Of a stretch of 64,000 nucleotides of DNA, positions 27,158 to 54,956 are shown piece after piece. The notes under the pieces were generated by a model that was given only the letters and a program-made list of their open reading frames with translations, did no database searches and was not told the origin of the DNA. Numbering within the stretch: the stretch's first letter is position 1; the number at the start of each line of letters is the position of its first letter. Made by a program: the position numbers and the translations under genes. The DNA comes from Acidimicrobiales bacterium (GTDB lineage: Bacteria > Actinomycetota > Acidimicrobiia > Acidimicrobiales > Ilumatobacteraceae), in contig JBBREA010000001.1 in assembly GCA_038203385.1 (NCBI GenBank), positions 25,196-89,195 of the forward strand. The letters run 5' to 3'.

Positions 27158-27178
27158 CATCAACAAGGAGTATCAACC

Positions 27179-27574: not shown

Positions 27575-27844
27575 AGCACGCGCCCTCGAAACTCAAGCGA
27601 ACGCCGGGTCCGGGAACGTCTCGTCTCGAAACCTTCCGCAGAAACGGTCACTGAATCGCGTTGGGCACCGGCCTGGCGCGGTCGTACGCCGTCGGCGCGG
27701 TGCCGCACAACGGGTCGTCGACCCAGCGACGCGATCGTGACCAACAAAGGTGGGCACCAGAGTGCTTACCGTGGCGTGTGCCGCAACGCTCACGGGATTC
27801 TCGGCGGCCCGGTCACGTTCGCGCAGGACGTGACGTCATCCGTG

Positions 27845-28753: not shown

Positions 28754-28889
28754 CCATGGGCACGCAATGGGCATCTCATGGGCACGAACCACCGAAAACG
28801 CAAGCCAGCGGCCCTTATAGGGCCGCTGACTTGGTGTTTCTTGGAGCGGATGACGAGATTCGAACTCGCGACCCTCACCTTGGCAAGGT
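28754..28889 (-). repeat. att-site copy: 48 bp of tRNA-Gly 3' half (28842-28889), terminator hairpin and ATGGGCAY triple repeat
   Basis: 28792-28889 is identical (98 bp) to 55643-55740. 28754-28886 closely matches 54642-54774. Confidence 0.92.
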
Positions 28890-29489
28890 TGTGGTCACCG
28901 TCCGTACAGTCCGACTACGGCGCTGCAGTACTCCACAGTCCGGAAAACCGTCCGGGAAATCCGTCTGTTCCGTCCAGTTCGTATACCGGTCTACCATCAC
29001 CCCCCGCACAGGCGTCCGGATCCTGACGCCGGCCCGGTTCGTCCTGGACGTCTTGCGACATCACATAGTGACGGGGCGGTGTGTTGAACCGCGACCTTCG
29101 AGTTATGAGTCTGGGGTGCCCTCCGGCATCAGGGCATCAGCGAGGACATTGCATGGTCAAGCCGCTCTGCTCCGTCGAGGAGCATTTCCGCGTCGATCAT
29201 GCTGAGCGACACTCGGCCGGCGGTGCTGTCGGTCCGGTCGGCGTCGAAGTTGCGGCGCTCACTCGTCGACCACGTGTCGACAAGAACTCCCAGCGACCAC
29301 GGCCCCGACGGCCCCGTCGATCAGCTCGGCATCGTGCCGAGCCCTAGACCATCGTGGTCGGACCCGCAAGTGTTCCCCAACAACAAATGACCGTCGTGTC
29401 GCTACGGGCTGAGGCTGCCACGCTGGGCGGATCAGCTGACATTGCCCCGGGGGTCGACAGGTGATGGCGGTGGCTGCGAGAATGGAACC

Positions 29490-30248
29490 ATGAAGCTTGG
29501 GATCGTGGGCAAGGGCGGAGTCGGCAAGACGACGCTGTCGGCGTTGATCGCGGAGGAATTCGTGCGTCGGGGAAAGCGAGTCGTGGCGATCGACACCGAT
29601 TCCAATCCGAACCTCGGCATGTCACTCGGTCTCGAAGCAGGAGAGGTCGATGCGATGCCGGTCGTACCGCGCCGCCTTGCGCTGGGCGCAGACGGCGGGA
29701 TGAGCGGAGCAGAATTCCTCGCCGAATACGGCCGGCCCACGCCGGCGGGAGTCACGCTCGTGTCGGCAATGCGGGTCGACCAAGCGGGCGGCGGTTGAAC
29801 GTGTGGCAACCATGCTGCCGTGCGCAGCATGCTCGACAACCTGATGACTGACGACACCGACATCACGCTCGTGGACATGGAAGCCGGCTTGGAACACCTC
29901 AGCCGCTCCGGCGGAACGCTCGCCTATGCAGACGTGCTGGTCATGGTGATGGAACCAAGCCGCAAGTCCGTGCTCACCGCCGCGCGAACCGCTGCACTGG
30001 CGGACGAGCTCGGGATTCCGCGAACGCTCGCTGTCGGGAACAAGGCTCGCCCGGATGACGAGCAGTTCTTCGCCGACGCGTGCGCCGAGCACGGGGTCGA
30101 GCTCGCGGCGATCGTCCCCCTCGACGATGCGGTCACGACCGCCGATCGCAACGGAATCAGCGTTACGCAAGTGGGGGCGGACGCGGCTCGCCAGGCGGTG
30201 ATCCGGCTCGTCAACCACCTTGAATCACTGGAGGCGACGGTCTCCTAG
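29490..30248 (+). CDS. CooC-like nickel-insertion ATPase, predicted selenoprotein (Sec at codon 103, GGG-U-T-C)
   Basis: GKGGVGKTT, IDTDSNPNL, then in-frame TGA 29796-29798 continuing TCGNHAAV...VDMEAGLEHLSR. The two track ORFs are in the same frame. SECIS-like hairpin follows. Confidence 0.85.
29811..29831 (+). promoter_or_regulatory. Bacterial SECIS-like hairpin
   Basis: CATGCTGC-CGTGC-GCAGCATG: perfect 8-bp stem starting 12 nt after the UGA, with GU in the loop. Confidence 0.75.
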
Positions 30249-30973
30249 CCGGCCAAGAGGAGGGCGGCGAGGCCGCCGAGTGCGCACACGGCAGGCGCCT
30301 CGGGATCTGCGTCGAGCGGCGCACGATCTGCACGGTCGGCTGTGGGGATCGCGTCGTCCTCCGGCACGAAAAGCACCACGCGCCCATCAAGTGCTTTCTC
30401 CACTGCGATGCGGTCGACGTCGTCGACCATCCGGTTGGCGACGATGACGATCGGGCCCGACGTGTGCTCCGCAGCGAGCACAGCCGCCCTCGACGCGACC
30501 TCGAGCGACTTCACGGTCGGATCCGTCACGACGACGATTGCGTCGACGCGAGTCTCGCCGAGTCGGGTGAGCGTTCCCGTTCCGGCTTCGAAGTCGGCTA
30601 CGACGATCGTGTCCTCATCGATGTCGAGTCCGAGCAACTGCTCGGGGGAGACCCCGCATCAAGGGCAACCGTGGTCGGGGTCCTCGATTTTGGAGACCAT
30701 CGCCAGGCGGACTCCGTCTGGAGCGTCGGCGCCGAAGCGGTCGATGATCTCTTGCCAGGACCGAGCGTGCTCGACGTCGTCGCCGACCCCGTCGCGCAGC
30801 GAGAGCAGAGCCTCGGTCGCTGCCAGGCCCACTCCGAGCGACAATCCGAGGTTTGGATTGGTGTCACAGTCGAGGGCGACCACCCTGTGACCGGTCCTCG
30901 CGAGGGTGCGGGCGAGGATGGCAGATGTCGTCGTCTTGCCTGCACCGCCCTTGCCGACTACGGCGATCTTCAC
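30245..30973 (-). CDS. CooC-like ATPase, predicted selenoprotein (Sec at codon 105, C-P-U-C)
   Basis: GKGGAGKTT, LDCDTNPNL, HGCP-TGA(30661-30659)-CGVSPEQLL...ADFEAG. Track ORFs 30659-30973 and 30245-30637 are in frame. Confidence 0.83.
30626..30654 (-). promoter_or_regulatory. Bacterial SECIS-like hairpin
   Basis: Minus strand CCGAGC-AGTT-GCTCGG starting 13 nt after the UGA, G at loop position 2 followed by U. Possible lower stem GGGTC/GACTC. Confidence 0.72.
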
Positions 30974-31731
30974 GGCGACTCCCTTCTCAAAGTGTCGACC
31001 AGGGATCGTATCGCATCGACCGCCGGCGAACCCGGGGCGTAGTCGAGCAATGGCACCCCGGCTCGCTCGGCAGCCGCGACCTCACGGTCACGGGGCACGA
31101 CGCCGACGACGCGCAGGCCGCTGAATTCCGCCAGACGCGTCGCGTCTGGCGTACCGATCGCTTTGTTCGCGATCGCCACAACCCGTTGACCGCTGCCGCC
31201 GGGGGCCGCAAGCCGCGCGAGTCGGCGCGCCGACAGCATCGACGAGGGAGTGGCCTCGGCCACCACCACCAACATGTCAGCGAAGCCGGCCCATCCGAAG
31301 AACGCCTGCCGGGTGCCGCCCGGGAGGTCCCCCACGAGGTGCAGGTCGGTCGTCTCGGCAAGTGCGCGCACGATGAGCCGGAAACCCTGCTGCGCCGGAC
31401 CGACGGAGCGAACATGACCGCGCGGCTTGCCGAATTGCAAGAGTCGAACACCGTCAGGTCCCTCGGCCGCGTACGCATCGATCGCCTCGATCCCCATCAT
31501 CCCGCCCCGGAGTTGCCACTCGCTGTCAGGACCGTTTCCGATCTTCTCGGCGAGATCCGCCGGGAGGGCAGTGTCGGTGCTCGGGACGCCGAGGGAGATC
31601 GCGAGGCCAGGCAGTGGGTCGCTGTCGATCGCGACGACTCCACGATCGTCGGTTCGTGCGAGTAGACGACAGAACGAGCCGGCGATCACCGACTTGCCTG
31701 CACCTCCCTTGCCGACAAACGCGATTCGCAT
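30970..31731 (-). CDS. CooC-like ATPase lacking the CxC motif
   Basis: MRIAFVGKGGAGKS, IDSDPLPGL, GPDGVRLLQFGK. GHVRS replaces the Cys motif and GDLPGG occupies the switch region. Confidence 0.8.
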   Translation of the reverse strand: MRIAFVGKGGAGKSVIAGSFCRLLARTDDRGVVAIDSDPLPGLAISLGVPSTDTALPADLAEKIGNGPDSEWQLRGGMMGIEAIDAYAAEGPDGVRLLQFGKPRGHVRSVGPAQQGFRLIVRALAETTDLHLVGDLPGGTRQAFFGWAGFADMLVVVAEATPSSMLSARRLARLAAPGGSGQRVVAIANKAIGTPDATRLAEFSGLRVVGVVPRDREVAAAERAGVPLLDYAPGSPAVDAIRSLVDTLRRESP

Positions 31732-31754
31732 GGTGACCAGCCTCCCACAGCGCG

Positions 31755-34040
31755 TCAGCACGTCGCAGCCGCGATCGCGGCCTGACCGATGCTGATGCCT
31801 CCGTCGTTCGGCGGGACCCGGCGGTGGACGAGGACCTCCAAGCCCGCATCGACGACGGCGCTCTCGACGAGCGATGTCAGCATCGCGTTCTGGAACACGC
31901 CTCCGGTGAGCGCCACGGTCTGCAACCGCTCCCGGCGGGCGATGACGATCGCCGCTCGGGCGAGCCCGCTGGCCAGGCGCCTGTGGAAGTCGATGGCGAT
32001 CTCGGGCGCCGATCGCCCTGCGATCCGGCCCGCCAAGGCATCGGCGACGAGCGCCGATGGGTCAAGCACCCATGGGCGGTCCGCATCCGGCTCCCCGATC
32101 CAGGTCCCGTCCACCGACGGAGCAGAACGCTCTTCGACGTAAGCGCTGGCGGCCGCCTCGAGTTCGACCGCAGCCTGTCCCTCGTAGCTCACCGTTGGGC
32201 GGAAGCCGGCGAGCGCGGCGATCGCGTCGAACAATCGGCCGCCGCTCGAGGTCATCGCGGTAGCACGGTGGTCGGACAGGGAGAGCACCGCTCGCCACCG
32301 AGGGTCGAGAGTCGGGCCGAGGTGGGCTGCGGCATCCGGACCGGAGGCGACGGCGACCCACGCAAGGGCCATCCGCCACGGCTCGCGAATCGCGACCGAT
32401 CCGCCCGGCAGCGGAACGGGACGCAAGTGACCGACCCGCCTGGATTCGCGAAGGTCCGCCACCAAGAGCTCGCCTCCCCACAGGCTGCCGTCCGATCCCA
32501 TCCCGAGCCCGTCGAACGCGACGCCGAGCACGGGTCCCGTCCGGCCGTGATCGACGAGGCATGACGCCACGTGCGCGTGATGGTGTTGAACGCCGAGAAC
32601 GTGCCTATCGGAATCAACAGCCCACTTCGTCGACAAGTACTCGGGATGGAGATCGTGGACAACCACCTCAGGGTCGATGCCCGTGAGCTCGACGAGATGA
32701 GCGATCGCCTGCTCGAACGCCGCGTACGCGGCGGGGTGCTCCAGGTCGCCGAGATGGTGGCTGGCGACGATCTGATCACCGGCAGCGACGGCGACGGTGT
32801 TCTTCAGCTCGGCACCGACAGCGAGGATCCTGAGCACAGCCGGGCTCGGCAGTCGCAACGACTCCGGCGCATACCCACGCGAGCGGCGCACGAGCTGCGC
32901 CCGCCCACCGACGGCGCGCACCACCGAGTCATCGCAGCGGATCTCGATCGGCCGGTCGTGGTGCAAGAAGCCGTCACAGAGGTGTGTGAGGTGCGCTCGG
33001 GCCATGTCGATGCCGGCGGCGATCGGCTCGTGGGTGCGGTTGCCGCTGGTCATCACGAGCGGGCGGCCGACTCCCTCGAGGAGGAGGTGATGAAGCGGGC
33101 TGTACGCCATCATCACGCCGACATCGGGCAACCCCGGCGCGACGCCGGTTGCGATGGTCGTGTGCCTGCGGCGGCGCGCAATCACGATCGGCCGCCGCTG
33201 AGAGGTCAGCTCTGCGCGACCAGAGTGGTCGAGCGTGACGAGTGCCGAGGCCTCCTCCGCAGATGCGACCATCACAGCGAAGGGCTTGTCGTCTCGTGCC
33301 TTTCGTTTGCGCAGGCGGTCAACGGCGGCGGCGTCGTCCGCAATGACCGCCAAGTGATAGCCGCCGAGTCCTTTCACGGCGACGATTTCTCCCTCGAGCA
33401 GGGACGAGATTGCAGCAGCGAGCGCGTGTTCTCCGCTCAACGAGGTGCGAATCTCACCGGCGCGTTCCCACATCAGCGTCGGTCCGCAGGCGGGGCAAGC
33501 GATCGGCTCGGCGTGGAACCGCCGGTCGGCGGGGTCGTCGTACTCCGCGCGACAGGAAACACACAGGGGAAATCCGGCCATCGTGGTGCTGGCGCGGTCG
33601 TACGGGAGCGAGCGGATGATCGTGTATCGCGGCCCGCAGTCAGCACAGTTGGTGAACGGGTAACGAAAGCGGCGCGCCAACGGATCACGCATCTCCTGAA
33701 GGCACGCTTCACAGGTCGCCACGTCAACGGGCACTGCCAGCGCCGGGCCGGTGCCCGCCGTACTCGGTACCACATCGAAGCCGCGCAACCCGTCGGCTGC
33801 GATCTCGGCGATCTCGATGAGATTGATTCGCGCCAGAGCGGGCGGCATTCGGTGGAGACGCTCGACGAAGGCGTCCAGCGGCGCGGATTCTCCTTCGATC
33901 TCGATGATCAGCCGATCCCGTTCGTTACCTGCCCAACCGTCGAGGCCGAGCTCACGAGCCTGACGTACCGCCCACGGTCGGAACCCGACGCCCTGCACCG
34001 CGCCGTCGACGACGACCCTTCGGCGGAGCCGCGGGCCCAT
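31755..34040 (-). CDS. hypF: Carbamoyltransferase HypF
   Basis: VQGVGFRP acylphosphatase domain, CxxC zinc fingers, KGLGGYHL, HHHAH, PPNDGGISIGQ. Confidence 0.95.
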   Translation of the reverse strand: MGPRLRRRVVVDGAVQGVGFRPWAVRQARELGLDGWAGNERDRLIIEIEGESAPLDAFVERLHRMPPALARINLIEIAEIAADGLRGFDVVPSTAGTGPALAVPVDVATCEACLQEMRDPLARRFRYPFTNCADCGPRYTIIRSLPYDRASTTMAGFPLCVSCRAEYDDPADRRFHAEPIACPACGPTLMWERAGEIRTSLSGEHALAAAISSLLEGEIVAVKGLGGYHLAVIADDAAAVDRLRKRKARDDKPFAVMVASAEEASALVTLDHSGRAELTSQRRPIVIARRRRHTTIATGVAPGLPDVGVMMAYSPLHHLLLEGVGRPLVMTSGNRTHEPIAAGIDMARAHLTHLCDGFLHHDRPIEIRCDDSVVRAVGGRAQLVRRSRGYAPESLRLPSPAVLRILAVGAELKNTVAVAAGDQIVASHHLGDLEHPAAYAAFEQAIAHLVELTGIDPEVVVHDLHPEYLSTKWAVDSDRHVLGVQHHHAHVASCLVDHGRTGPVLGVAFDGLGMGSDGSLWGGELLVADLRESRRVGHLRPVPLPGGSVAIREPWRMALAWVAVASGPDAAAHLGPTLDPRWRAVLSLSDHRATAMTSSGGRLFDAIAALAGFRPTVSYEGQAAVELEAAASAYVEERSAPSVDGTWIGEPDADRPWVLDPSALVADALAGRIAGRSAPEIAIDFHRRLASGLARAAIVIARRERLQTVALTGGVFQNAMLTSLVESAVVDAGLEVLVHRRVPPNDGGISIGQAAIAAATC

Positions 34041-35131
34041 CAGCAGATGCGCGGCAGGGGGTCGCCGACGAGGAGATCGACGATCCGTGCCCCACCGAAG
34101 GCGGTCGTCATCGTGACCATGCCAGGAGGCTCCGAGGTCACCTCGCCGATCACGGCGGCACCGCGCCCGAGGGGGTGAGCGCTCATGGCGGCAAGCGCAG
34201 CGCCGGTCTGATTCGGCGGGACGATCGCCACGAGGCGCCCTTCGTTGGCGACGTACAGCGGATCGATGCCGAGCAGCTCGCACGCCGCCCTGACCTCTGG
34301 TCGCACCGGGAGAGCGGCCTCGTCCAGCACGACGCCGCAGGCAGCCGCCACTGCGAGCTCGTTCACAGCGCTGGCCACGCCGCCCCGCGTCGGATCACGC
34401 AGCCAACGGGTCTGGGGTGCAGCAGTCATCAACACCTCCACGAGTCCGTTGAGGGCGGCGGTGTCGGACCGAACGTCGGCCTCGATCGCAAGATCCCCTC
34501 TGGCGAGCATGATCGCGATCCCGTGGTCACCGATCGATCCGGAGACGATCACGCAATCTCCTGGGCGGACGAGCTCATGGGACAGGCGGCGCCCTTGCGG
34601 GACGACGCCGACTCCGGTGGTGGTGATGAACAGCCGATCCGCGGCGCCCCGCGGCACGACCTTGGTGTCACCGGCGACGATCTCCACCCCGGCGATGGAG
34701 GCGGCCGCCGCCATGTCGGCCACGAAACCGCGCAGTTCGTCGACGGCGAGGCCCTCCTCGAGGACAAAGGCTGCGCTGATCCACGACGGCTGCGCGCCGA
34801 CCATCGCCAGGTCGTTCACCGTCCCGTTGATGGCGAGATCGCCGATCGAGCCGCCAGGAAAGCGCTGCGGTGTCACGACGTACGAGTCGGTGGTGATCGC
34901 GACGCGCTCACCGCCGATCTCGACCACCGCGGCGTCGTCCATCCGCCTCAGCACAGGATTCGCGAACGCGTCGAGGAACACCGCGTCGATCAGCGCAGCC
35001 GATGCTTTGCCACCGGCGCCGTGGGCCGTGGTGACGTGGGAGTCGGTGAGTCGCGGTCGTCGGCGGCGGAACTTCTCGATTCTGGCCTGAACTGCAGCCT
35101 CGCGATCTGCAGTGCCGTCCCCGGCGGTCAT
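34040..35131 (-). CDS. hypE: Hydrogenase maturation protein HypE
   Basis: HGAGG, GDTKVV, RDPTRGG, C-terminal LPRIC. Confidence 0.96.
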   Translation of the reverse strand: MTAGDGTADREAAVQARIEKFRRRRPRLTDSHVTTAHGAGGKASAALIDAVFLDAFANPVLRRMDDAAVVEIGGERVAITTDSYVVTPQRFPGGSIGDLAINGTVNDLAMVGAQPSWISAAFVLEEGLAVDELRGFVADMAAAASIAGVEIVAGDTKVVPRGAADRLFITTTGVGVVPQGRRLSHELVRPGDCVIVSGSIGDHGIAIMLARGDLAIEADVRSDTAALNGLVEVLMTAAPQTRWLRDPTRGGVASAVNELAVAAACGVVLDEAALPVRPEVRAACELLGIDPLYVANEGRLVAIVPPNQTGAALAAMSAHPLGRGAAVIGEVTSEPPGMVTMTTAFGGARIVDLLVGDPLPRIC

Positions 35132-36252
35132 CCGGCGGTGACCGGAATCCGACCCCGGCCAGCGAAGCGGCCGAAGTTGTAGTAGGCGGCGCACGCGCCC
35201 TCGGACGAAACCATGCAGGTGCCGATGGGCGTCTCCGGGGTGCATCCCGTGCCGAACACCTTGCACTCCCACGGTTTGATGACGCCCTTCAGGACTTCCC
35301 CGCACTGGCAAGCCTTTGGATCCGCGACGCGCACTCCCGGGATCTCGAATCGATCCTCGGCGTCCCATGCAGCGAACTCGGGACGAAGTTTCAGCGCACT
35401 CTGCGAGATGAATCCAAGGCCTCGCCACTCGAAGTGCGGCCGCAGCTCGAACACCTCACGCAGCACTGCAATCGCTCGCGAGTTGCCCTGCTCACGCACG
35501 CACCGGATGTATTGGTTCTCCACCTCGCAACGGCCCTCCGCGATCTGGCGCAGCAGCATGACGATCGCCTGGAGGATGTCGAGTGGCTCGAAGCCAGCCG
35601 TGACGAGCGGCTTGCCGTACTGCGCGGGCACGAAGCGGAACGGCGCGTTGCCGACAACTGTGGCCACGTGTCCCGGACCGAGGAAGCCGTCCAAGCGGAG
35701 GTCGGGAGATCCGAGTATCGCCCGCAGCGGGGGAACGATCGTCACATGGTTGGAGAAGACCGAAAAATTTGCGACCCTCGCCTCGCGAGCTCGGAGGAGC
35801 GTCAAGGCGGTGGACGGCGCAGTGGTCTCGAATCCGACGGCGAAGAACACGACCTCGCGGTCAGGGTTGCGCTCGGCCAGTTGCAGCGCGTCCATCGGCG
35901 AGTACACCATCCGCACGTCGGCCCCGTGCGCCTTCGCCTCGAGCAGCGTGCCCGAACCGCCCGGCACGCGCATCATGTCGCCGAAACTCGTGAATATCAC
36001 CCCAGGCTGCTGGGCGACGGCGATCGCGTCGTCCACCCGTCCCATCGGGATGACGCACACCGGGCATCCGGGCCCGTGGACGAGCTCGACGTTCTCGGGC
36101 AAGAGACCCTCGATCCCGTGCCGGTAAATGGTGTGAGTGTGCCCGCCGCACACCTCCATGAAAGCGAGCGGGGTGCTACCCGCAAGGAGGTAAATCTCGG
36201 TGAGCACCGCTTGCGCCGCCACCGGATCGCGAAACTCGTCGACGAACCTCAC
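35128..36252 (-). CDS. hypD: Hydrogenase maturation protein HypD
   Basis: MEVCGGHTH, GPGCPVC, GFETT, CMVSSEGACAA. Confidence 0.96.
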   Translation of the reverse strand: MRFVDEFRDPVAAQAVLTEIYLLAGSTPLAFMEVCGGHTHTIYRHGIEGLLPENVELVHGPGCPVCVIPMGRVDDAIAVAQQPGVIFTSFGDMMRVPGGSGTLLEAKAHGADVRMVYSPMDALQLAERNPDREVVFFAVGFETTAPSTALTLLRAREARVANFSVFSNHVTIVPPLRAILGSPDLRLDGFLGPGHVATVVGNAPFRFVPAQYGKPLVTAGFEPLDILQAIVMLLRQIAEGRCEVENQYIRCVREQGNSRAIAVLREVFELRPHFEWRGLGFISQSALKLRPEFAAWDAEDRFEIPGVRVADPKACQCGEVLKGVIKPWECKVFGTGCTPETPIGTCMVSSEGACAAYYNFGRFAGRGRIPVTAG

Positions 36253-36896
36253 GACGGCCCAGGTCGTTCGAGGTGAGTGCTGATCAGCGCCACGAGCTTT
36301 GCTGCGACGGCGGTCTGCGCCTCCTGGATTCGGTGCACGGAGTCGGAGTCGATGCACAGACAATGATCCACGCGCGTCCGCAACGCACCGCCTCCGTAGC
36401 CGGCGATGGCGATCGTGAGGATCCCTCCGCGGCGCGCGTGGTCCACCGCGGCAAGGACGTTCGCCGAGCCCCCGCTCGTCGAGAACGCGATGACGACGTC
36501 GCCCGGGCGCCCGTGGGCTGCGAGTTGGCGAGCGAAGATCACGTCAATTCCTATGTCGTTGGCGAGCGCAGTCAGCACAGCCGGCTCTGCGGCAAGCGAG
36601 ATAGCCGGCAGCGAACGGGGTGCGGCGGCATCGCACATCCGCACGAACGCGGAGGCGTCGGTAGCGCTCCCCCCGTTGCCCAACGCGAGAATCCGACCGC
36701 CTGCGCGCACACGGCCTGCGGCAGGGATGGCGGCTTGCGTGAGCTCCGCCTCGAGCTCGACGAGAGTTCGCTGCCTGAGAGTTCGGCTTTCGTCCCACTT
36801 CGCCGCCGCCGAACGTCCGAGGTCGGCCAGCACCTCCGCAGGATCGCGAGCGGTCTCGCCGAGGAACGGATAGAGGAAACCTGTGTCCTCAACCAC
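36249..36896 (-). CDS. SIS-domain (GmhA-like) protein in the hyp operon
   Basis: GNGGSATDA, TALAND, FSTSGGSAN, HRIQEAQ. Confidence 0.88.
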   Translation of the reverse strand: MVEDTGFLYPFLGETARDPAEVLADLGRSAAAKWDESRTLRQRTLVELEAELTQAAIPAAGRVRAGGRILALGNGGSATDASAFVRMCDAAAPRSLPAISLAAEPAVLTALANDIGIDVIFARQLAAHGRPGDVVIAFSTSGGSANVLAAVDHARRGGILTIAIAGYGGGALRTRVDHCLCIDSDSVHRIQEAQTAVAAKLVALISTHLERPGPS

Positions 36897-37584
36897 GAGT
36901 GGCTCCGAGGATCACGGGCGCTTCCAACCGTTTGATCGCGACACCTGCGTGCACAATGACCAGATCGCCCGACTGACACGGCTCCACGAGGGTCAGGTCG
37001 ATGTGACGGCGGAGGCCGGCCACGATGACCGTGGAGTCGAATCCCGCGGTCGCGACGTCGACCTCGCCGAGCTCGCCTGCATCCATGCAGGCGGGACACG
37101 TCGAAGCCTCGGCGGCACCGTCGAGTAGGTCGGGTTGCTCGGAGCACACGTGGGTGAGCTCCCACAGCAGGTGGTAGGCGCAGACGATGTCAGCATGGTC
37201 GGCCGCCGCGCCGAGCCACACCACGTTCGCGCCTGTATCGATGGTCGGCCGCTCGCCGTGAGCGAGCAGGATCGCGCCGATACCCCACGCTGGGGCGCGC
37301 CCGACAACGTCGAGGAGTCCGGCGTCGTCTCCGGACCCGATTGCGACGAGGACGTCACCGGGCCGTGCGGAGTGCCGTAGACGAGCGGCTGCACCGTCGG
37401 GTGCCAACACGATCGCGGGTCGGGCGCGCTTGCCGACGATCACCGGGTGCACGAACTCCACCGCAAGGTGCTCGGCGTGGGTGGGCCACGCCGGCGACCA
37501 GCACCACAGAGTCGCCCCCCGATGGAAATGACGCGCAAGGACGAGCGACGCAGACGCGAGCGCATCATGTGGTGCAGCGGTCAC
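36889..37584 (-). CDS. Degenerate SIS domain fused to a CxxC-HypC/HupF-like domain
   Basis: HLAVEFVHPVIVGKRA...YHLLWELTHVC, then CPAC and GDLVIVHAGVAI. Confidence 0.75.
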   Translation of the reverse strand: MTAAPHDALASASLVLARHFHRGATLWCWSPAWPTHAEHLAVEFVHPVIVGKRARPAIVLAPDGAAARLRHSARPGDVLVAIGSGDDAGLLDVVGRAPAWGIGAILLAHGERPTIDTGANVVWLGAAADHADIVCAYHLLWELTHVCSEQPDLLDGAAEASTCPACMDAGELGEVDVATAGFDSTVIVAGLRRHIDLTLVEPCQSGDLVIVHAGVAIKRLEAPVILGATRG

Positions 37585-37859
37585 GGCGATGAGCCTTGCT
37601 CCATCTGCGCGATCTCCTCGTCGTAGACGGAACCCAGCATCTTGATGAAGTCCAGCGTGCGCTTCGCCTCGTCCTCGTCGATCTTCGCCATTGCGAATCC
37701 GACGTGGATCAGCACCCAGTCTCCGACACCGATCCCACCCTCGTCACCGGCAACCAGTTCGACGTTGACCTCGCGCCGCACGCCATCCACTTCCGCCACG
37801 GCCTGGTGCGGTCGCGCTGGATCGTAGACGACTATCTGGCCGGGGAGCCCGAGGCACAT
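37581..37859 (-). CDS. hypC: Hydrogenase chaperone HypC
   Basis: MCLGLPGQI, GDWVLIHVGFAM. Confidence 0.96.
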   Translation of the reverse strand: MCLGLPGQIVVYDPARPHQAVAEVDGVRREVNVELVAGDEGGIGVGDWVLIHVGFAMAKIDEDEAKRTLDFIKMLGSVYDEEIAQMEQGSSP

Positions 37860-38632
37860 CAGCGAACCCCTGTTCTCGCGGCGAGAACCGCATCGAGCAC
37901 TCGGCCCACAGCGACGGACACGGGCCCGGCGGGGTCGGCGTCGAGCAGGGGGCGAGCCGTGCGGTCGGCGTCGATCACGGCATCCGAAAACGGGACTTCA
38001 CCGAGGCGGGCCAGCCCATGGCGATCGCAGAACTCTGCCACGGCTTCACTGTCGGCCACCGAGCGAACCTTGTTCGCGACTACGACCGTGCGCGTGGATG
38101 GCAGCTCGGCGGCGAGGTCGGCCAGTCGACGCGTCGCTTCCAGAGAGCGGTAGTACGGCTCGGTGACGAGCACAAGCACGTCCGCGAATCGAGCAGTGCC
38201 GCGGCTCACATGCTCGGGAGACGCCTCGAGGTCGACGACCGTGAGCGTTTCTGGTTGTGTCTCGCCGAGTTCTGCGAGCACCGCACTGACGGCAGCGTGT
38301 GCAGAGCACAGACAGCCCTCACCGGCATGCGCTGGCGCACCCATGAGGAGCAGACGCACGCCGTCCGGTGCGACGGTGCCGTGCGCGGCAAACACCTCGT
38401 CGACCGACACGGTGAGACTGGGCCCGGTGAGCTTGCGCGAAACGGACGAGGCCGGGATTCCCGCGAGTCCAGCCGCAAGAGCGGGGGCCACTCCGAGCGC
38501 GGCGGCGATGTTCGGGTTGCTGTCGGCATCGATCGCGACGACGTTCATGCCTCGACGCGCGGCGAGGCGAGCCAGCGTGGCCGCGATCGTCGTCTTGCCG
38601 GCACCGCCCTTTCCCGCCAACGCAACCCTCAC
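37859..38632 (-). CDS. CooC-like nickel-insertion ATPase with canonical Cys motif
   Basis: GKGGAGKTT, IDADSNPN, GEGCLCSAH, VDLEASPEHVSRG. Confidence 0.88.
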   Translation of the reverse strand: MRVALAGKGGAGKTTIAATLARLAARRGMNVVAIDADSNPNIAAALGVAPALAAGLAGIPASSVSRKLTGPSLTVSVDEVFAAHGTVAPDGVRLLLMGAPAHAGEGCLCSAHAAVSAVLAELGETQPETLTVVDLEASPEHVSRGTARFADVLVLVTEPYYRSLEATRRLADLAAELPSTRTVVVANKVRSVADSEAVAEFCDRHGLARLGEVPFSDAVIDADRTARPLLDADPAGPVSVAVGRVLDAVLAARTGVR

Positions 38633-38985
38633 GATGATCCGAGGACGCGCGTCGCCCTGTCGACGAGCTCGCCGAGTAGTCCGACCGTCGACTCGATCTC
38701 CGCCACCTCAACCGCGAGCGCAGCACGTCCTTCGGGGGTGAGCGCGTAGGTGCGTCGCGGCGGCCCCGACGATGAAATCTCCCACCACGACTCGAGCGAT
38801 CCCTGCTGCTCCATCGACCGCAACATGCGGTAGAGCCCTCCGGTGTCGATCGCGATCAAACCCAAACCCGGCAGCTGTTCGAGCAACTCATACCCGTGAG
38901 ATGGACCTGGCGCGACGAGCACGAGAAGAGTGGTGCGCAGGTACGACCTGGGAAGCTTGCGTTCGGTGAATCTGCCCTCCATCAT
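38629..38985 (-). CDS. PadR-family transcriptional regulator
   Basis: HGYEL, GGLYRMLRSME, GPPRRTYALTPEG. Confidence 0.9.
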   Translation of the reverse strand: MMEGRFTERKLPRSYLRTTLLVLVAPGPSHGYELLEQLPGLGLIAIDTGGLYRMLRSMEQQGSLESWWEISSSGPPRRTYALTPEGRAALAVEVAEIESTVGLLGELVDRATRVLGSS

Positions 38986-39383
38986 CGGTTCCCATCATGC
39001 TCATGGCCATGGCCGCGACGTTGGGCCACACAGGCGTCTGACTCGTCGACCGACATGTGACACCAACAGTCGTCACTGCACTCGCCGTGGGTGGGTCGCA
39101 TCAGTTCGTCGAAGGACAGGGCGAACTCAACTCCGCCCTCCTCCAGCCCGCGCTCGGACAGCGTGTACCAAGTGCCATCGCGGTGGAGGTACTCCTCCTC
39201 GACGAGTCGGTCGAGATAGGAGATGCCGTTCGTTGCGTCGACGCCGAGGAAGCGTTCGATCAGCGGCGGGTCGACGAGATCCCCGAAACCCTCGCCGCGC
39301 AGCCAGTACATCACCTGAAGGATCTCGCTACGCCAGTACATGGCGCGCAGCGCCTCGCTCTTCGGCGGCTGAAGCTCAGACAT
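38982..39383 (-). CDS. Hypothetical winged-helix-like protein with Cys/His-rich C-terminal tail
   Basis: WRSEILQVMYWLRGEG, tail HGECSDDCWCH...C...HGHEH. Confidence 0.75.
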   Translation of the reverse strand: MSELQPPKSEALRAMYWRSEILQVMYWLRGEGFGDLVDPPLIERFLGVDATNGISYLDRLVEEEYLHRDGTWYTLSERGLEEGGVEFALSFDELMRPTHGECSDDCWCHMSVDESDACVAQRRGHGHEHDGNR

Positions 39384-39672
39384 GAGGCGCGGCGGTCGAG
39401 GGTCCTGTCGACGCAGCGGCGGCGGCACCCTCCGCAAGCCCCGCTACGCCGTCGAGGGCGGCCGCGATGACGGTCAGCTGTTGGTTGATGCGGGTGACCG
39501 ACGGTCCGATCGTCTCGCACTGCGTCTCGATGGCGCGGACCCCGAACGTCACCTTGCCGAGCAGATCGCTGGTTGCCCGCAGCGAACGGCCGATACGCGC
39601 AAGGTACACGGCGAGCGCGCCGATGACGAGAGCGATCTCCATGACGGTGGCGATGATGAGCAGCGTGCGCAC
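39376..39672 (-). CDS. Short single-TM hydrogenase-associated protein
   Basis: N-terminal TM and helical tail. LGKVTFGVRAI shared with 53931-54194. Confidence 0.75.
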   Translation of the reverse strand: MRTLLIIATVMEIALVIGALAVYLARIGRSLRATSDLLGKVTFGVRAIETQCETIGPSVTRINQQLTVIAAALDGVAGLAEGAAAAASTGPSTAAPHV

Positions 39673-40207: not shown

Positions 40208-40277
40208 TAGATGCAATATACACCGACCGGCCCGCCGACGATGCACCGGAGAACCCAATAGGTGTATCTTGCACCTA
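40208..40277. promoter_or_regulatory. Pair of inverted 17-bp operator-like sites in the divergent hydrogenase promoter
   Basis: tagatgcaatatacacc (40208-40224) vs ggtgtatcttgcaccta (40261-40277) match 15/17 as inverted copies. Each contains GTGTA-N3-TGCAY. Confidence 0.55.
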
Positions 40278-40301
40278 GACGCACGATGGAGGGGGTTTCC
40301 G

Positions 40302-41651
40302 ATGTCCCAGGATGGCGACGGCCAGCCCGAACCGGTCGACGCACCGACCGCAGGGCAACCACACGGAACTGGCGCTGGTCCCGACCACGCTGGCGGTGTT
40401 TCCACCGACTCGCCGGCAACGGCGGGCGAGCCCGTCTCACTCGGCCAGGGCGGCGCGATGCCCGGCGGCGCGGAGATGGACCAATGGGAGTCCTCCAGCA
40501 TCGATCCGCTGGCGCCGATCGCGATCCGCAGCCGGTCGATGGTCGAGCCAGATGACACGTTGCGCATCGGCCCGCTGCGCAAGATCTATCTCATCTGGCT
40601 CGTCGGCGCATCGTGTGACGGTTGCACGGTCGCCGTGTCGGGCGCGACGCACCCGCGCGTCGAGCACCTCCTCGCAGGGATCATCCCGGGGCTTCCGCGC
40701 GTGGAGATCATCCACACCGTCTTGTCCGTCGAGTCTGGCGCGGAGTGGGTTGCAAATCTGTTCATGGCAGAGGCCGGCGAGCTCGACGCCCCCTACGTGA
40801 TCACATGGGAGGGATCGGTGATGGACGAGACCCTCTCCGGCGACGGCTACTGGATGGGCCTCGGCGAGGACCCCGAGACGGGGCGCCAGATCACCAGCCT
40901 CGAGTGGCTCGATCGCCTGGCACCGGGCGCTGCGGCGGTGATCGCCATCGGCACCTGTGCGACGTGGGGCGGAATCCCGGCGGCGAAGGGCAACCCGACC
41001 AACGCGATGGGGGTGATGGACCACCTCGGCAAGGACTACGTCTCCGCGCTGGGAGTGCCGGTGGTCAACGTCCCCGGCTGTGCCCCGGTGGGCGACAACT
41101 ACCTGGAGACGGCAGCGGCGGTGCTGCTGTTCTTGAACGGGATCGCACCGCTACCGGAATTCGACGAGCTCGGGCGACCGGCGTGGCTGTTCGGCGAGAC
41201 GGTCCATCGGCACTGCCCCCGCGCCGGCTACTACGAGGAGGGCGTGTTCGCCGAGGCGTATGGCGACAAGGAGTGCCTGGTCGAGCTCGGCTGCTGGGGG
41301 CCCGTGGTTCAGTGCAACATCGCCGAGCGAGGCATGCTCGACGGACACGGCGGCTGCATGCAGATGGGCGGGATTTGCATCGGGTGCACCATGCCGGGTT
41401 TCCCCGACAAGTTCTCGCCGTTTTACGAGGCACCCCCAGGTGCCATGTTGTCGAGTACGACGAGCAGGGTCACCGGCGGGTTCATCCGGCGAATGCGCGA
41501 GGTGAGCCAGGCCGACAAGAACATGTCTGCGCGCTGGGAAGACGACGCGCCAAGTGCATGGGCGCGCAACCGCACGGGGCCGCGGGGCGCCGTCAAGCTG
41601 CTGCACCGGTTCTATTCCAAGCATCAGCACTCGAAAGAGTCCTACAACTAA
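40302..41651 (+). CDS. [NiFe]-hydrogenase small subunit (no Tat signal)
   Basis: SCDGC, GTCATWGGIP, PGCAP, HRHC, CLVELGC, GGICIGCTMPGFPD. GGAGG RBS. Confidence 0.93.
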   Translation: MSQDGDGQPEPVDAPTAGQPHGTGAGPDHAGGVSTDSPATAGEPVSLGQGGAMPGGAEMDQWESSSIDPLAPIAIRSRSMVEPDDTLRIGPLRKIYLIWLVGASCDGCTVAVSGATHPRVEHLLAGIIPGLPRVEIIHTVLSVESGAEWVANLFMAEAGELDAPYVITWEGSVMDETLSGDGYWMGLGEDPETGRQITSLEWLDRLAPGAAAVIAIGTCATWGGIPAAKGNPTNAMGVMDHLGKDYVSALGVPVVNVPGCAPVGDNYLETAAAVLLFLNGIAPLPEFDELGRPAWLFGETVHRHCPRAGYYEEGVFAEAYGDKECLVELGCWGPVVQCNIAERGMLDGHGGCMQMGGICIGCTMPGFPDKFSPFYEAPPGAMLSSTTSRVTGGFIRRMREVSQADKNMSARWEDDAPSAWARNRTGPRGAVKLLHRFYSKHQHSKESYN

Positions 41652-41670: not shown

Positions 41671-43551
41671 ATGTGCTTCAAGAACCTGCCCATCGAGTTC
41701 GACCTCGACGGCAACGCCCGACTGCGAGACGGCATCGACGACCCGTACGCCGTGACGGTGGCTGCACCGAAGGAGTACGTGCGGCTGCCCGACGGCCCCG
41801 GGGCCACGTCGGCGGCGCCGCCACGTCTGCGCGACTGGAGCATCGACCCGGTGACGCGTGTCGCCGGCGCGCTGGCAGTGCACACCGTGCTCGATCTCGA
41901 CAAGCGCGAAGCGGTCGAGGCCCACTCCCAGGCGATGCTCTTCCGTGGGTACGAGGTGATCCTCAAGGGCCGAGACCCGCGCGACGCGATCGACATCAGC
42001 TCGCGGGCGTGTGGCGTGTGCGGTGGCGTCCACTCCACGGTCTCGGCGCTCGCGATCGAGCAGGCGTTCGGGATCTGTCCGCCTCCGCTCGGCGTCCTCG
42101 TTCGCAACCTCGGCGAGGTCGGGGAGATGTTCTACGACCATCCGCTCCATCTAGGTCTCCTCGCCGGGCCGGATTACTCCACCTCCATCGTCGCCGTCAC
42201 CAACCCCGAACTCGTCACGCTGGCCGAGCGCACGCCCGCCCGTCATGCCGACGTGCACGGGTTCAAGACGATGAAGGACCTCATGGATGCCCTCAACCCG
42301 TTGACGGGCAAGATCTACCTCGAGTCGCTCGAGTACACCCGCGTCGGCCGGATCATGTGCATGCAGATGTACGGAAAGTACCCGCATCCCTCGACGCTGG
42401 TCCCGGGTGGCGTGTCGACCACGATCAGCACGTCGTCGTTCAACGAGTACTACACCCAGCTCGGCAAGATCTTCGACTACTGCAAGGTCATGGCGGCCAC
42501 GTGGGACGACATCGCCGACTTTTTTCTCGAGGCGAACCCCGAGTACGAGCGGGTCGGCGCCCGACCCACCAACCTGATCCAGACCGGCATCTGGGACGAC
42601 CCGGAGGCGTACGACGCGACCTACGCGAACTGCAACGAGTGGGGCGACAAACGGTGGGCGCTGCCGGGGATCATCCTCGACGGCGAGCTGCGTACGACCC
42701 GATTGACAGACATCAACATGGGGGTCGAGGAGTTCGTCGAGCACTCCTACTACGACGACTGGACGGTCGGGACCACACCCCGGTTCGCCGCCGATCCGCT
42801 CGGCAACCCGATCTCGCCCTACCACGCCTGGAACAAGGAGACGATCCCCCGCCCGCAGGGCAAGAACTTCAAGGAGAAGTACAGCTGGGATTGCGCGCCG
42901 CGGTGGGACCGACAGGTGATGGAGACCGGCACCTACGGGCGGATGTGGACGACAGCGCTCGCCGGCCGCACCCCCGACAACCCGTTCCTCGAATCCACCG
43001 GCGACGGGCTGCGGATCGTCCTCCCCCGCCATGGGCTGCCCGAGATGGAGCTCAATTGGAAGGTCCCGCGGACGCTCAACGCCCTCGAGCGCAACCGTGG
43101 CCGTGCGTACGCAATGGGTTTCACCGCTGCGATCGGCATGAACTGCATCCTCAAGGCGTTCGAATACTGGCGCAACGGCGAGACGGCGGTCAGTGTGCCG
43201 TACAAGGTGCCCAAGGACGAGCGAGTGGCAGTGGGATTCTGGGAGGCCGGCCGCGGGTTCCTCACCCATCACCTACACATGGACGGTGGAAAGATCGTGA
43301 ACTACCAGATCAACACCCCATCCACGTGGAACGCCTCGCCGCGCGACCCCTTCGGCAACCCAGGCCCGTATGAGCAAGCGATCGTCGGAACCCCGATCTT
43401 GGAGAGCGTGAGCGACGAAAACGTGAAGGGGATCGACATCCTGCGCGCCATCCGCAGCTTCGACCCCTGCATGCCGTGCACCACGCACATGGATACCGGC
43501 AGAGGTGTCATTGTGCGTGAGGTGAACTCCTGCGGCTGCACGCTCGAATGA
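41671..43551 (+). CDS. [NiFe]-hydrogenase large subunit (group 1, probably 1l-like)
   Basis: IDPVTRVAG, L1 SRACGVCGGVH, L2 RSFDPCMPCTTH with a C-terminal extension. Confidence 0.95.
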   Translation: MCFKNLPIEFDLDGNARLRDGIDDPYAVTVAAPKEYVRLPDGPGATSAAPPRLRDWSIDPVTRVAGALAVHTVLDLDKREAVEAHSQAMLFRGYEVILKGRDPRDAIDISSRACGVCGGVHSTVSALAIEQAFGICPPPLGVLVRNLGEVGEMFYDHPLHLGLLAGPDYSTSIVAVTNPELVTLAERTPARHADVHGFKTMKDLMDALNPLTGKIYLESLEYTRVGRIMCMQMYGKYPHPSTLVPGGVSTTISTSSFNEYYTQLGKIFDYCKVMAATWDDIADFFLEANPEYERVGARPTNLIQTGIWDDPEAYDATYANCNEWGDKRWALPGIILDGELRTTRLTDINMGVEEFVEHSYYDDWTVGTTPRFAADPLGNPISPYHAWNKETIPRPQGKNFKEKYSWDCAPRWDRQVMETGTYGRMWTTALAGRTPDNPFLESTGDGLRIVLPRHGLPEMELNWKVPRTLNALERNRGRAYAMGFTAAIGMNCILKAFEYWRNGETAVSVPYKVPKDERVAVGFWEAGRGFLTHHLHMDGGKIVNYQINTPSTWNASPRDPFGNPGPYEQAIVGTPILESVSDENVKGIDILRAIRSFDPCMPCTTHMDTGRGVIVREVNSCGCTLE

Positions 43552-44045
43552 CGGGACCCGTTCTCGTCGGTGGCGTCGGCCTGCCATGGCTCCGCGACCT
43601 CGACTTCGGGACCCAGTTCATCGTGCGCGTCGAGTCCGAGAGCTGGCCGGATGACGTCATCCTCGAGGACCTCTCGTATGCGGCGCACCGAGTCCTACAT
43701 CGCCTCCAGGAAATCGTTCCCCGCAAGGTCGTGCTCGTCGGCGCGATGCCACGAGACGTCGACCCGCCAGGCACCATCCGCTGCTACACGCTGGACCTGA
43801 CCCCGCCCCCGCCCGAGGAGGTCCATGAGCGCCTTACCGAAGCAGTCGGGGGGATCATCGACCTGGACCACACTCTTGCCGTCGTGCGCCATTGGCACGC
43901 GCTCCCGGAGGACACCACGGTCATCGAGGTCGAGCCGGCTGACCGTTCGTTCGGCCTTGGGTTCAGCGAGCCCGTGGAAGCCGCAGTGGAGGAAGTCCTC
44001 CGGCTCGTGCGCCAGAAGGTCGGCGCGATAGAGCCGCGGACATGA
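43548..44045 (+). CDS. Hydrogenase maturation endopeptidase
   Basis: GGVGLPWLRDLDFG N-terminal motif, directly after the large subunit. Confidence 0.8.
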   Translation: MTGPVLVGGVGLPWLRDLDFGTQFIVRVESESWPDDVILEDLSYAAHRVLHRLQEIVPRKVVLVGAMPRDVDPPGTIRCYTLDLTPPPPEEVHERLTEAVGGIIDLDHTLAVVRHWHALPEDTTVIEVEPADRSFGLGFSEPVEAAVEEVLRLVRQKVGAIEPRT

Positions 44046-44653
44046 CCGCATTCAGCGACGAACTGCCGCACGACGAGGTACTGGCAGCGATCGCTGCACT
44101 CGCCGAGAAGCTCAGCGAGCACCCAGACGTGGGACAGGAGGTGCTGGAACTTCTCGACTGGGTCGATGCGTTTCATCGCGAGGGGCTCGGTCGACTCGTC
44201 GAGATGATCCGTGCGTGGCGCGGCGAGATCTTTCTCGAGTCGGTCGCCGGTGATGTCGTAGCCGGCGGACTCCTCGCCGCTTACGATCTCGGCGAGGGTG
44301 CACGGGAATCGGCGGAGGCGGCCGTCGAACGCGCAATGGCCGAGATCCGCCCGTTCGCGGCTTCTCACGGCGGTGACATCGAGGTCATCGGCATCTACGA
44401 CGGCGTGGTCGAGGTCCGTCTGCGCGGCACCTGCGACGGATGCCCGAGCTCGGCAGCGACGCTGACGCATGGGGTGGAGGAGGCCCTGCGCCGGCAGTGG
44501 GTGAATTTCCGCCGGCTCGACCTTGCTGAGGCCGCCACGGTGGACTCGGCCAAGGCCGACCTGATCTGCCCGGTGCCCGAACCGCCGCAAATCGCCATGT
44601 CCGATGCCGTTCGACCGCAGCGGGTGCAGATCCGCGGCCATGAGCTCGCCTGA
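44042..44653 (+). CDS. NifU-like (NfuA-type) Fe-S carrier
   Basis: IRPFAASHGGDIE, LRGTCDGCPSS. Confidence 0.88.
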   Translation: MTAFSDELPHDEVLAAIAALAEKLSEHPDVGQEVLELLDWVDAFHREGLGRLVEMIRAWRGEIFLESVAGDVVAGGLLAAYDLGEGARESAEAAVERAMAEIRPFAASHGGDIEVIGIYDGVVEVRLRGTCDGCPSSAATLTHGVEEALRRQWVNFRRLDLAEAATVDSAKADLICPVPEPPQIAMSDAVRPQRVQIRGHELA

Positions 44654-45130: not shown

Positions 45131-45630
45131 CGCGGGTGCTGATCGCGGGGGTGGGCAACGTGCTGCGCGGTGACGACGGTTTCGGAGTGGAGGTCGCACA
45201 CCGCCTCGAGGAAATGGCGCTGCCAGCCGGTATCCGAGTGGTGGAGACGGGCATCGGCGGCATCGCACTCGTTCAGGAGTTGCAGGATGGATGGGATGCG
45301 TTGATCGTCATCGACACGGTCGACCGCTCGCGTGCGCCCGGGACAGTGATGGTGATCGAGCCTGACATCGTCGACGTCGAAGCGCTCAGCTGGAGCGAGC
45401 GTCACGACCTGCTCGCCGACATGCACCTCGCCACCCCCGCACGTGCGCTGATGCTCGCGCGCGCCCTCGGCGTACTGCCCCCGGTCGTGCGGCTGGTGGG
45501 ATGCCAGCCGGTCGACGCCGAACGAGTCGGGATCGGACTCGACCCGATGATGGTCTCGTCGGTCGACGTGGCGGTGCGGCAAGTGCTCGACGAGGTCACC
45601 CGGCTGATCGCGCTGCCACTCGATGGTTGA
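45127..45630 (+). CDS. Hydrogenase maturation endopeptidase (second)
   Basis: IAGVGNVLRGDDGFGVEV, DMH, VGCQP. Confidence 0.9.
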   Translation: MTRVLIAGVGNVLRGDDGFGVEVAHRLEEMALPAGIRVVETGIGGIALVQELQDGWDALIVIDTVDRSRAPGTVMVIEPDIVDVEALSWSERHDLLADMHLATPARALMLARALGVLPPVVRLVGCQPVDAERVGIGLDPMMVSSVDVAVRQVLDEVTRLIALPLDG

Positions 45631-51809: not shown

Positions 51810-51822
51810 AGGGGACGACCGC

Positions 51823-54774: not shown

Positions 54775-54956
54775 AGAAACAAGGTTGTGGCTCGAGGCCG
54801 CGGAATTGCGCAGCGCGCCGTTGGCGATGACGGGTCGGCTGGCATCCATGTCGGGGAGCGCGAAGACTGTCCGACCGAGTGATTCGCATTGGCGTGCTAC
54901 AAAACCAGCTTGGACCGCTACGGAATCCGGGGGTTGATGCAGCGATGGCTCCGGCG

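Follow-up and report, generated by a model that had tools for sequence, protein, structure and literature searches.

CooC-type ATPases, two of them predicted selenoproteins, as candidate nickel-delivery factors in a [NiFe]-hydrogenase locus of an Acidimicrobiales bacterium

Introduction

How does a [NiFe]-hydrogenase obtain its nickel when its maturation cluster lacks the genes for the customary nickel-insertion proteins, HypA and HypB? The question is raised by a stretch of 64,000 nucleotides (hereafter the window) from a soil actinobacterium, an Acidimicrobiales bacterium of the Ilumatobacteraceae (assembly GCA_038203385.1, contig JBBREA010000001.1, positions 25,196 to 89,195 of the forward strand). 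An initial annotation, made from the letters of this DNA only, had noticed a hydrogenase maturation (hyp) cluster accompanied by four ATPases resembling CooC, here called A1 to A4, two of which looked like selenoproteins, and had read them as a nickel-delivery module replacing HypA and HypB. To our knowledge, these two proteins are thought to be needed for nickel insertion in essentially all [NiFe]-hydrogenases, and CooC and AcsF are known solely as maturation factors of carbon monoxide dehydrogenase (CODH) and acetyl-CoA synthase (ACS). CooC1, the CooC of Rhodospirillum rubrum and AcsF are ATP-dependent nickel-insertion factors of Ni,Fe-CO dehydrogenase and acetyl-CoA synthase.

From the comparisons reported below we consider it fairly probable that the locus holds the maturation and structural genes of an O2-tolerant, group-1h-like [NiFe]-hydrogenase, and that CooC-type ATPases insert its nickel without HypA or HypB.

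Results

The four ATPase genes lie where the initial annotation had placed them and carry the motifs that it had read. It had given no strand: A1 is on the plus strand and the other three are on the minus strand. A minus-strand location of A1 was considered and rejected, all three frames being nonsense. The genes, together with two hairpins resembling selenocysteine (Sec, U) insertion sequences (SECIS-like), are the following:

29490..30248, plus strand: A1, CooC-family ATPase by its match to CooC1, predicted selenoprotein, motif G-G-G-U-T-C
29811..29831, plus strand: A1 SECIS-like hairpin, stem CAUGCUGC, loop CGUGC, stem GCAGCAUG, from folding and pair count
30245..30973, minus strand: A2, CooC-family ATPase by its match to CooC1, predicted selenoprotein, motif C-P-U-C
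30630..30645, minus strand: A2 SECIS-like hairpin, CCGAGC-AGUU-GCUCGG, from folding and pair count
30970..31731, minus strand: A3, Cys-less ATPase paralogue, Walker A motif GKGGAGKS, LQFGKPRGH replacing CxC
37859..38632, minus strand: A4, CooC-family ATPase by its match to CooC1, all-Cys motif G-C-L-C

All four proteins carry an N-terminal deviant Walker A motif (GKGGVGKT in A1, GKGGAGKT in A2 and A4, GKGGAGKS in A3). They are 31-40% identical among themselves, with A3 35-36% identical to A2 and A4, and they are the sole genes of this kind in the genome. Neither Pfam nor NCBIfam holds a CooC-specific model, and generic CbiA, MinD and ParA models match; for family placement, each ATPase was compared with all solved structures. 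CooC1 (3KJE) came out ahead of ArsA, MinD and NifH for A1 (E 1.7e-21, next best 3.7e-12), A4 (E 8.7e-22, next best 7e-06) and A2 (E 1.5e-11, next best 2e-06). The best match of A3 was archaeal MinD-1 (E 1.7e-07), with CooC1 at E 2.8e-06. These comparisons place A1, A2 and A4 in the CooC family; A3 is too diverged for such a placement by sequence alone, yet clearly groups with the other three. The initial preference for CooC over MinD and ParA thus holds for three of the proteins and does not extend to A3, which lies near both.

Could the four be positioning or partition ATPases of the MinD/ParA type, either mere neighbours of the hydrogenase genes or proteins that place the enzyme complex in the cell? 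The best NCBIfam matches are indeed MinD and ParA models, and A3 finds its closest solved relative in MinD-1. All of these NCBIfam matches stay below the cut-off (54-62 bits vs about 200), CooC1 is the top match for three of the four, the genes are linked to hydrogenase and hyp genes across at least eight phyla, and MinD and ParA have no use for a conserved Cys/Sec metal motif. We regard this explanation as very unlikely.

The metal site of CooC1 from Carboxydothermus hydrogenoformans (PDB 3KJE, 3KJG, 3KJH and 3KJI), formed by Cys112 and Cys114 at the dimer interface, served as the reference for the motifs. The C-L-C of A4 aligns with Cys112-x-Cys114, as does the U-T-C of A1, whose U falls on the first metal Cys (Cys112). 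For A2, C103 of its C-P-U stands at C112 and U105 at Cys114, with an extra Cys directly after the U. A3 has no Cys at this site. In other phyla the A4 orthologues have G-U-x-C. The A2 and A3 clades reach supports of 98 and 99 in a tree of 123 homologues, and A1 and A4 are nearly monophyletic, so that A1 to A4 are old, separately conserved paralogues. (The tree and the alignments exclude G002 and G015, with loci L024 and L059, which are flagged as unpublished.) A3 always lies directly upstream of A2 in the related loci, its stop overlapping the A2 start.

Each of the two predicted selenoprotein genes contains a single in-frame TGA, at 29796-29798 (codon 103) in A1 and at 30659-30661 (codon 105) in A2. 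At the A1 column, all 120 full-length database homologues, 58-77% identical across both TGA flanks, have Cys (GCTC). Among 80 related genomic loci, TGA occupies the metal-site column in 24 A1-type, 14 A2-type and 15 A4-type genes from several phyla; because the same column recurs in dozens of independent genomes, it must reflect more than chance. The A2-type motif reads C-P-stop-C in 12 of these genes and stop-P-stop-C in two, and the variants across loci include U-T-G, U-T-U and U-P-U-C. TGA is the sole stop at metal-site columns, except for one TAG in Geodermatophilus chilensis. These motif counts, and the hairpin counts below, take in the unpublished G002 and G015.

A hairpin follows these codons in a fixed position, beginning 15 nt past the U of UGA in A1 and 16 nt past it in A2. 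In A1/A4-type genes it consists of a 5-8 bp stem and a CGUGC or GGUCC loop, at a fixed distance (15 nt) from the UGA. One of the first two loop bases of the hairpins is a G. Its 5-bp core, taken in fixed register, is fully paired in 32/38 TGA genes vs 1/54 Cys genes, and the A2-type hairpin shows 6/6 pairs in 12/12 TGA genes vs 1/6 Cys genes. At least six compensatory stem variants were found, with the encoded amino acids changing in step. Only the fixed-register pair count separates the two forms: the mean minimum free energy does not distinguish Sec from Cys genes, and in this GC-rich DNA the whole-segment folding energies after the two TGAs are no better than those of shuffled sequences (z -0.67 and -0.89).

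The genome also encodes selenocysteine machinery, with selA (408.8 bits), selB (253.8 bits) and selD (328.2 bits) all above cut-offs. Its gene for the formate dehydrogenase alpha subunit (FdhA) has an in-frame TGA at the canonical CNRT-U-HAPS site (G000:C31:25466-27334, L141) and is, judged by that site, a second, classical selenoprotein of the genome. Across the carrier genomes selA was found in 22 of 27, and three of the five without it hold Cys forms only; the family tree implies at least 16 switches between Sec and Cys. Contigs from at least four public runs of three studies span both TGA codons, with no change among the entries listed, one run possibly being the source sample; no RNA data set is listed among the runs that contain this DNA.

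The alternative is that these TGAs are true stops, and A1 and A2 pseudogenes, split genes or products of assembly error. It would fit the failure to find a tRNA-Sec in the genome, and the TAG at the A2 position in an isolate, G. chilensis (L052). It leaves unexplained a TGA that stands at one column in dozens of genomes with both flanks conserved, a position-fixed hairpin with compensatory changes that is essentially confined to TGA forms (32/38 vs 1/54), the presence of selA, selB, selD and a Sec-containing FdhA, and contigs from several runs and studies that span both codons with no change listed. True stops are, in our estimation, extremely unlikely, and the TGA codons of A1 and A2 very probably encode selenocysteine. 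On this point the initial prediction of two selenoproteins is borne out by column recurrence, hairpin, machinery and FdhA.

Several unusual forms were encountered in the related loci. The TAG in the A2 orthologue of G. chilensis B12 (L052:11151-11153) is followed by a fully intact hairpin; among other causes, a recent inactivation of the gene or an error in sequencing could account for it. Double-Sec motifs occur as U-T-U in an A1-type gene of a Chloroflexota metagenome-assembled genome (MAG; L062:1452-1460) and as U-P-U-C in A2-type genes of Egibacteraceae and Chloroflexota MAGs (L047:6308-6316 and L064:8062-8070). The motif is G-U-T-G in an A1-like subfamily of 43-45% identity to A1 (L065, L066, L069, L072, L074, L075, L080, L082 and L087); in it Sec is the sole chalcogen ligand, the second Cys is missing, and the hairpin takes the variant GUCAC-GGUCC-GUGAC.

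We then turn to the missing nickel-insertion genes. The initial annotation had seen no hypA, hypB or CODH/ACS gene in the window, and the whole genome gave the same picture: HypA (PF01155) was not found in profile searches of the 88%-complete genome and the window, nor were HypB (TIGR00073; best match 67.6 bits vs a cut-off of 121), CooS (PF03063) and AcsB (PF03598) in the genome. Two candidates were rejected. The HypA match on contig C86 (21 bits) lies within an unrelated 517-aa open reading frame (ORF) and is spurious, and the HypB-like match is UreG (225 bits on TIGR00101). The source MAG has 3.36 Mb in 255 contigs and likewise yielded no tRNA-Trp; its closest relatives in the genome collection are Acidimicrobiales MAGs. 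Because it is incomplete, other genomes carrying related loci were examined.

Among 29 such genomes, HypB was found above cut-off in nine and HypA in 11. The distribution follows the hydrogenase large subunits (LSU), which form a CooC-linked first class (at least 52% identical to the LSU of the window) and a second class (41-45%). The 15 genomes with the first class only have no HypB and no full-length HypA; they include the isolates Haloechinothrix halophila (one 5.55 Mb scaffold) and G. chilensis. The same is true of G003, which has two first-class LSUs. Carriers that do have HypAB also hold a second-class or other LSU, and hypAB adjoins it in five loci (L125-L128 and L130). An independent sample of 201 Actinomycetota genomes supplied seven published ones with an A4 orthologue and a completeness of 95-100%. 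None of them has HypB above cut-off, two have only short, N-terminal HypA-like matches, and the LSU is of the first class in every one. Most carriers are MAGs of unknown completeness; for the absences we rely chiefly on these seven high-quality genomes and on the two isolates. The HypAB and LSU tallies (29/30 genomes) take in G002 and G015, and G077 and G149 appear only in the 201-genome listing; no conclusion hinges on any of these four genomes, all flagged as unpublished. Short HypA-like ORFs were noted in G027:C48 (L122), G029:C143 (L123), G215:C19:45129-45317 and G046:C123:2545-2742. They match the N-terminal 66-69 residues of the HypA model, which is the nickel-binding end without the zinc domain.

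These searches bear on the idea that the ATPases serve another nickel enzyme, be it urease or an anaerobic CODH/ACS, and just happen to adjoin the hyp genes. CooC proteins are known from CODH/ACS maturation, and UreG, hence presumably urease, is encoded in the genome. Since the CooS family (PF03063) occurs in just 1/27 carrier genomes, the ATPases would not serve CO dehydrogenase, and neither CooS nor AcsB was found in the source genome. Urease has its own UreG, and A4, A3 and A2 lie within the hyp operon, with overlapping stops and starts. We would give this idea hardly any weight.

The hydrogenase itself resembles the group 1h enzyme of Cupriavidus necator: the LSU of the window scores 511 bits against 5AA5, and at most 176 bits against other groups. 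It keeps RACGVCGGVH and DPCMPCTTH with all four Ni-Fe Cys residues, as well as the C-terminal extension. By these similarities it is group-1h-like, belonging to HydDB subgroup 1h or a sister group. A survey of related hydrogenase loci, proposed with the initial annotation, showed that many phyla carry the ATPases. They adjoin small subunit (SSU), LSU, protease, NifU-like, PadR and hyp genes across at least eight phyla, the linked loci belonging to Actinomycetota, Chloroflexota, Gemmatimonadota, Verrucomicrobiota, Acidobacteriota, SAR324, Myxococcota and Burkholderiales. The linkage of the ATPases to the first-class hydrogenase is conserved. Cultured carriers exist in Pseudonocardia nigra, Haloechinothrix and Geodermatophilus; the A2 motif of P. 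nigra DSM 104088 (L048) reads C-P-TGA-C. A second LSU in one carrier (G188; L138:8574-10199, minus strand) ends just past the terminal His of DPCMNCGVH, and without a C-terminal extension it would need no protease. The single TGA in that gene was considered as a recoding site and rejected, being the natural stop right after the terminal His.

The remaining genes of the cluster are listed below. In DNA of 65% GC such as this, neither GC3 nor frame statistics told real ORFs from spurious ones, so genes in the window were called by family matches. The hypC, hypD, hypE and hypF genes and two proteases that the initial annotation had reported are all there.

31755..34283, minus strand (longest ORF; real start probably about 34040): HypF, with acylphosphatase, zf-HYPF, Sua5 and HypF_C domains
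34040..35428, minus strand (longest ORF; start probably about 35140): HypE, AIRS domains from residue 164
35128..36363, minus strand: HypD (PF01924, E 2.5e-153)
36249..36896, minus strand: SIS-domain protein, typical of such hyp clusters (domain match)
36889..37584, minus strand: protein with a C-terminal HupF/HypC domain (domain match)
37581..37859, minus strand: HypC (PF01455, E 1.7e-23)
38629..38985, minus strand: PadR-family regulator (family match)
38982..39437, minus strand (start probably ATG at 39383): winged-helix Cys/His-tail protein, conserved A4 neighbour
40269..41651, plus strand: [NiFe]-hydrogenase small subunit (family match)
41671..43551, plus strand: [NiFe]-hydrogenase large subunit, group-1h-like (5AA5, 511 bits)
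43548..44045, plus strand: hydrogenase maturation protease 1 (TIGR00072, 52.4 bits, cut-off 47.45)
44042..44653, plus strand: NifU-like domain protein (family match)
about 45139..45630, plus strand: hydrogenase maturation protease 2 (104.9 bits, G000:C1:70334-70789)

The minus-strand row, densely packed and mostly overlapping, runs from 39437 down to 30245 in the order winged-helix protein, PadR, A4, HypC, HupF/HypC-domain protein, SIS, HypD, HypE, HypF, A3 and A2, with hypF to hypC spanning 31755-37859. Divergent from it on the plus strand lie the small subunit, the large subunit, protease 1, the NifU-like gene, an ORF without assigned family, protease 2 and a TPR protein. A1 and A2 are convergent and have the four bases CTAG at 30245-30248 in common.

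The protein at 38982-39437 has a H-G-E-C-x3-C-x-C-H...C motif, in which H99, C102 and C106 are invariant, and a His-rich tail. Its relatives adjoin A4-type genes from Actinomycetota to SAR324, frequently with a His-rich end, and no Pfam or NCBIfam family matched it. The structural model (pLDDT 79, with a disordered tail) gave weak MarR/MntR-like winged-helix matches in Foldseek (best E 1.7e-3), which point to a regulator-like fold rather than to a HypA- or CooT-like chaperone. It is possible that this protein is a nickel-sensing regulator and not a HypA analogue. Co-folding with A4 gave a score of 0.28 (mark 0.32), which we use neither for nor against binding.

Outside the cluster, but immediately next to it, the genes at 48144-53595 (minus strand) encode an ABC transporter of the Opp/Dpp/Nik family. 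Its fused double ATPase scores above the NikD and NikE model cut-offs, and also above Dpp/Opp models; the permease is NikC-like, and the best match of the binding protein, NikA, is sub-threshold. The transporter is a candidate nickel importer. Just upstream of A1 (25694-28459) are a metallo-beta-lactamase/rhodanese fusion, a DUF302 protein and a DsbA-like protein, a set that may handle sulfur and possibly selenium. Between this set and A1, an ORF without assigned family (28756-29205) has partial copies at 54644-54775 and 55637-55747, in which about 40 residues are 91% and 89% identical to it; this looks like a repeated element or gene fragment.

Discussion

We propose the following course of maturation. 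HypC, HypD, HypE and HypF would build the Fe(CN)2CO part as usual. The CooC-type ATPases would bind ATP, dimerise and, by analogy with CooC1, hold nickel between the Cys/Sec motifs of two subunits; once they have passed it on to the large subunit, the proteases would cut the C-terminal extension. A4, with its C-x-C, would be the core component common to all phyla, and A1 (U-x-C), A2 (C-x-U-C) and the Cys-less A3 would be extra paralogues of Actinomycetota and Chloroflexota. Selenocysteine, inserted at UGA with the help of the downstream hairpin, would supply one of the metal ligands in A1 and A2. A3 and A2, being translationally coupled, probably act as a pair, and since the ligand-free A3 adjoins an A2 with three chalcogen ligands (C-x-U-C), the arrangement suggests an asymmetric A2-A3 heterodimer. 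We infer the nickel cargo, the large subunit as target and the ATPase pairings; nickel is indicated by the homology to CooC, the missing HypAB and the affinity of Sec for nickel in [NiFeSe] enzymes. To this extent the initial reading, nickel delivery by CooC paralogues replacing HypAB, is supported.

What speaks against this proposal? Nickel binding and the effect on the hydrogenase are predictions from the genes. The source genome is 88% complete, and its absences are weak taken alone; in its 255 contigs ARAGORN found no tRNA-Sec, and the best Rfam RF01852 score was 39.9 vs a threshold of 47. A3 has no metal ligands, and its sequence is no closer to CooC than to MinD. Given ample nickel, some hydrogenases mature in the absence of HypAB, as in hyp mutants of E. 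coli, so missing HypAB need not imply a substitute. The expectation that hypAB is absent wherever the locus occurs is upheld by the seven genomes of 95-100% completeness and the two isolates without HypB, and fails in three cases. One Rubrivivax contig (L093/L129) carries HypB and a short HypA together with an all-Cys A4-type gene and a first-class LSU. A Nocardioidaceae MAG (L054/L127) has hypA-hypB and a second-class hydrogenase at a distance of 4 kb from A1-A2-A3. In Chloroflexota L135, hypA separates the hyp operon from a second-class hydrogenase. The ATPases and HypAB thus do not strictly exclude one another. Finally, the NifU-like gene in the cluster leaves room for an Fe-S role.

This last point leads to the main rival of nickel: the ATPases may mature the hydrogenase with a different cargo, such as Fe-S clusters for the small subunit, or act in its assembly or targeting. 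They belong to the same SIMIBI superfamily as the Fe-S carriers, and their Pfam matches include ParA/NUBPL and Fer4_NifH; dimers of the Mrp/NBP35/ApbC and NifH types hold a cluster between two subunits. The NifU-like neighbour, an A3 without any Cys, and the presence of HypB (Rubrivivax) or HypAB (L054) alongside the ATPases would all be at home in such a scheme. The best solved match is CooC1 and neither Mrp nor NifH, however, and the motif is the CxC of CooC, vs the CxxC of Mrp. In addition, genomes with the first-class hydrogenase only have no HypAB, which would leave the nickel step without another candidate. We hold a non-nickel role to be unlikely, and nickel insertion by the CooC-type ATPases stays our preferred explanation.

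A wider claim can be made only tentatively, its chances being in our view a little short of even. It is that aerobic [NiFe]-hydrogenases of the atmospheric-H2 type have a selenium-dependent route of nickel insertion, in which CooC ATPases, some with selenolate-held nickel, replace HypA/HypB in a considerable part of the H2 oxidisers of soil and work in specialised pairs (A2-A3, plus A1 and A4). Enzymes of this kind are credited with the soil sink for atmospheric H2. If the claim is true, these bacteria would need a supply of selenium, and not of nickel alone, for their hydrogenase to be active. A widespread set of clusters that have CooC-type ATPases and no HypAB would mean a second way of inserting nickel, and the Sec of the new family would probably bind metal instead of serving in redox chemistry. 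Genes of this type are cut in two at the TGA by annotation pipelines, and systematic mis-annotation follows.

As regards earlier accounts, literature searches linking CooC with selenocysteine or selenoproteins, or covering HypAB-less atmospheric hydrogenases, returned nothing relevant. We found no publication describing a CooC-type chaperone recruited to a [NiFe]-hydrogenase, with Sec, and the initial annotation, too, had known of none. Reviews of the selenoproteome from 2022 (PMC9312934) and 2026 (PMC13188914) list no CooC, MinD, P-loop ATPase or such metallochaperone family, so that these ATPase genes would be a new selenoprotein family. The closest precedent is a drawing of group 1h/1l clusters with "CbiA", PadR, SIS, TPR, HupD and hyp genes (Fig. 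S5 and Table S7 of Ortiz et al., 10.1101/2020.08.06.239558). The clusters are of the same kind, and the CbiA entry of a Euzebyales MAG in that table is an A3-type protein; the figure and table give Pfam labels only and make no link to CooC, nickel, HypAB absence or selenocysteine.

Compared with CooC1, the proteins A1, A2 and A4 are alike in length (about 250 aa), in the N-terminal deviant Walker A motif GKGGxGKT and in the alignment position of the metal motif. They differ from it in their setting, the genes being embedded in hyp and [NiFe]-hydrogenase clusters of a genome in which no CODH/ACS was found, and in being part of a set of four paralogues vs one, with a Sec ligand in A1 and A2 and the motif lost in A3. 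Given that the genome searches yielded neither CooS nor AcsB and that PF03063 is so rare among the carriers, the proteins would be CooC-like in fold and motif without being CODH maturation factors. The proposed role, nucleotide-dependent nickel delivery to the large subunit before C-terminal cleavage, is that of HypB and HypA. HypB, too, is an NTPase of the SIMIBI class and binds metal where its two subunits meet, at an interface containing Cys; unlike HypB, a G3E GTPase (TIGR00073), A1 to A4 are ATPases of the MinD/CooC type. As in [NiFeSe]-hydrogenases, Sec replaces a Cys that (here presumably) ligates nickel. In those enzymes it belongs to the hydrogenase, whereas here the large subunit keeps all four Cys residues and the Sec resides in the putative chaperone.

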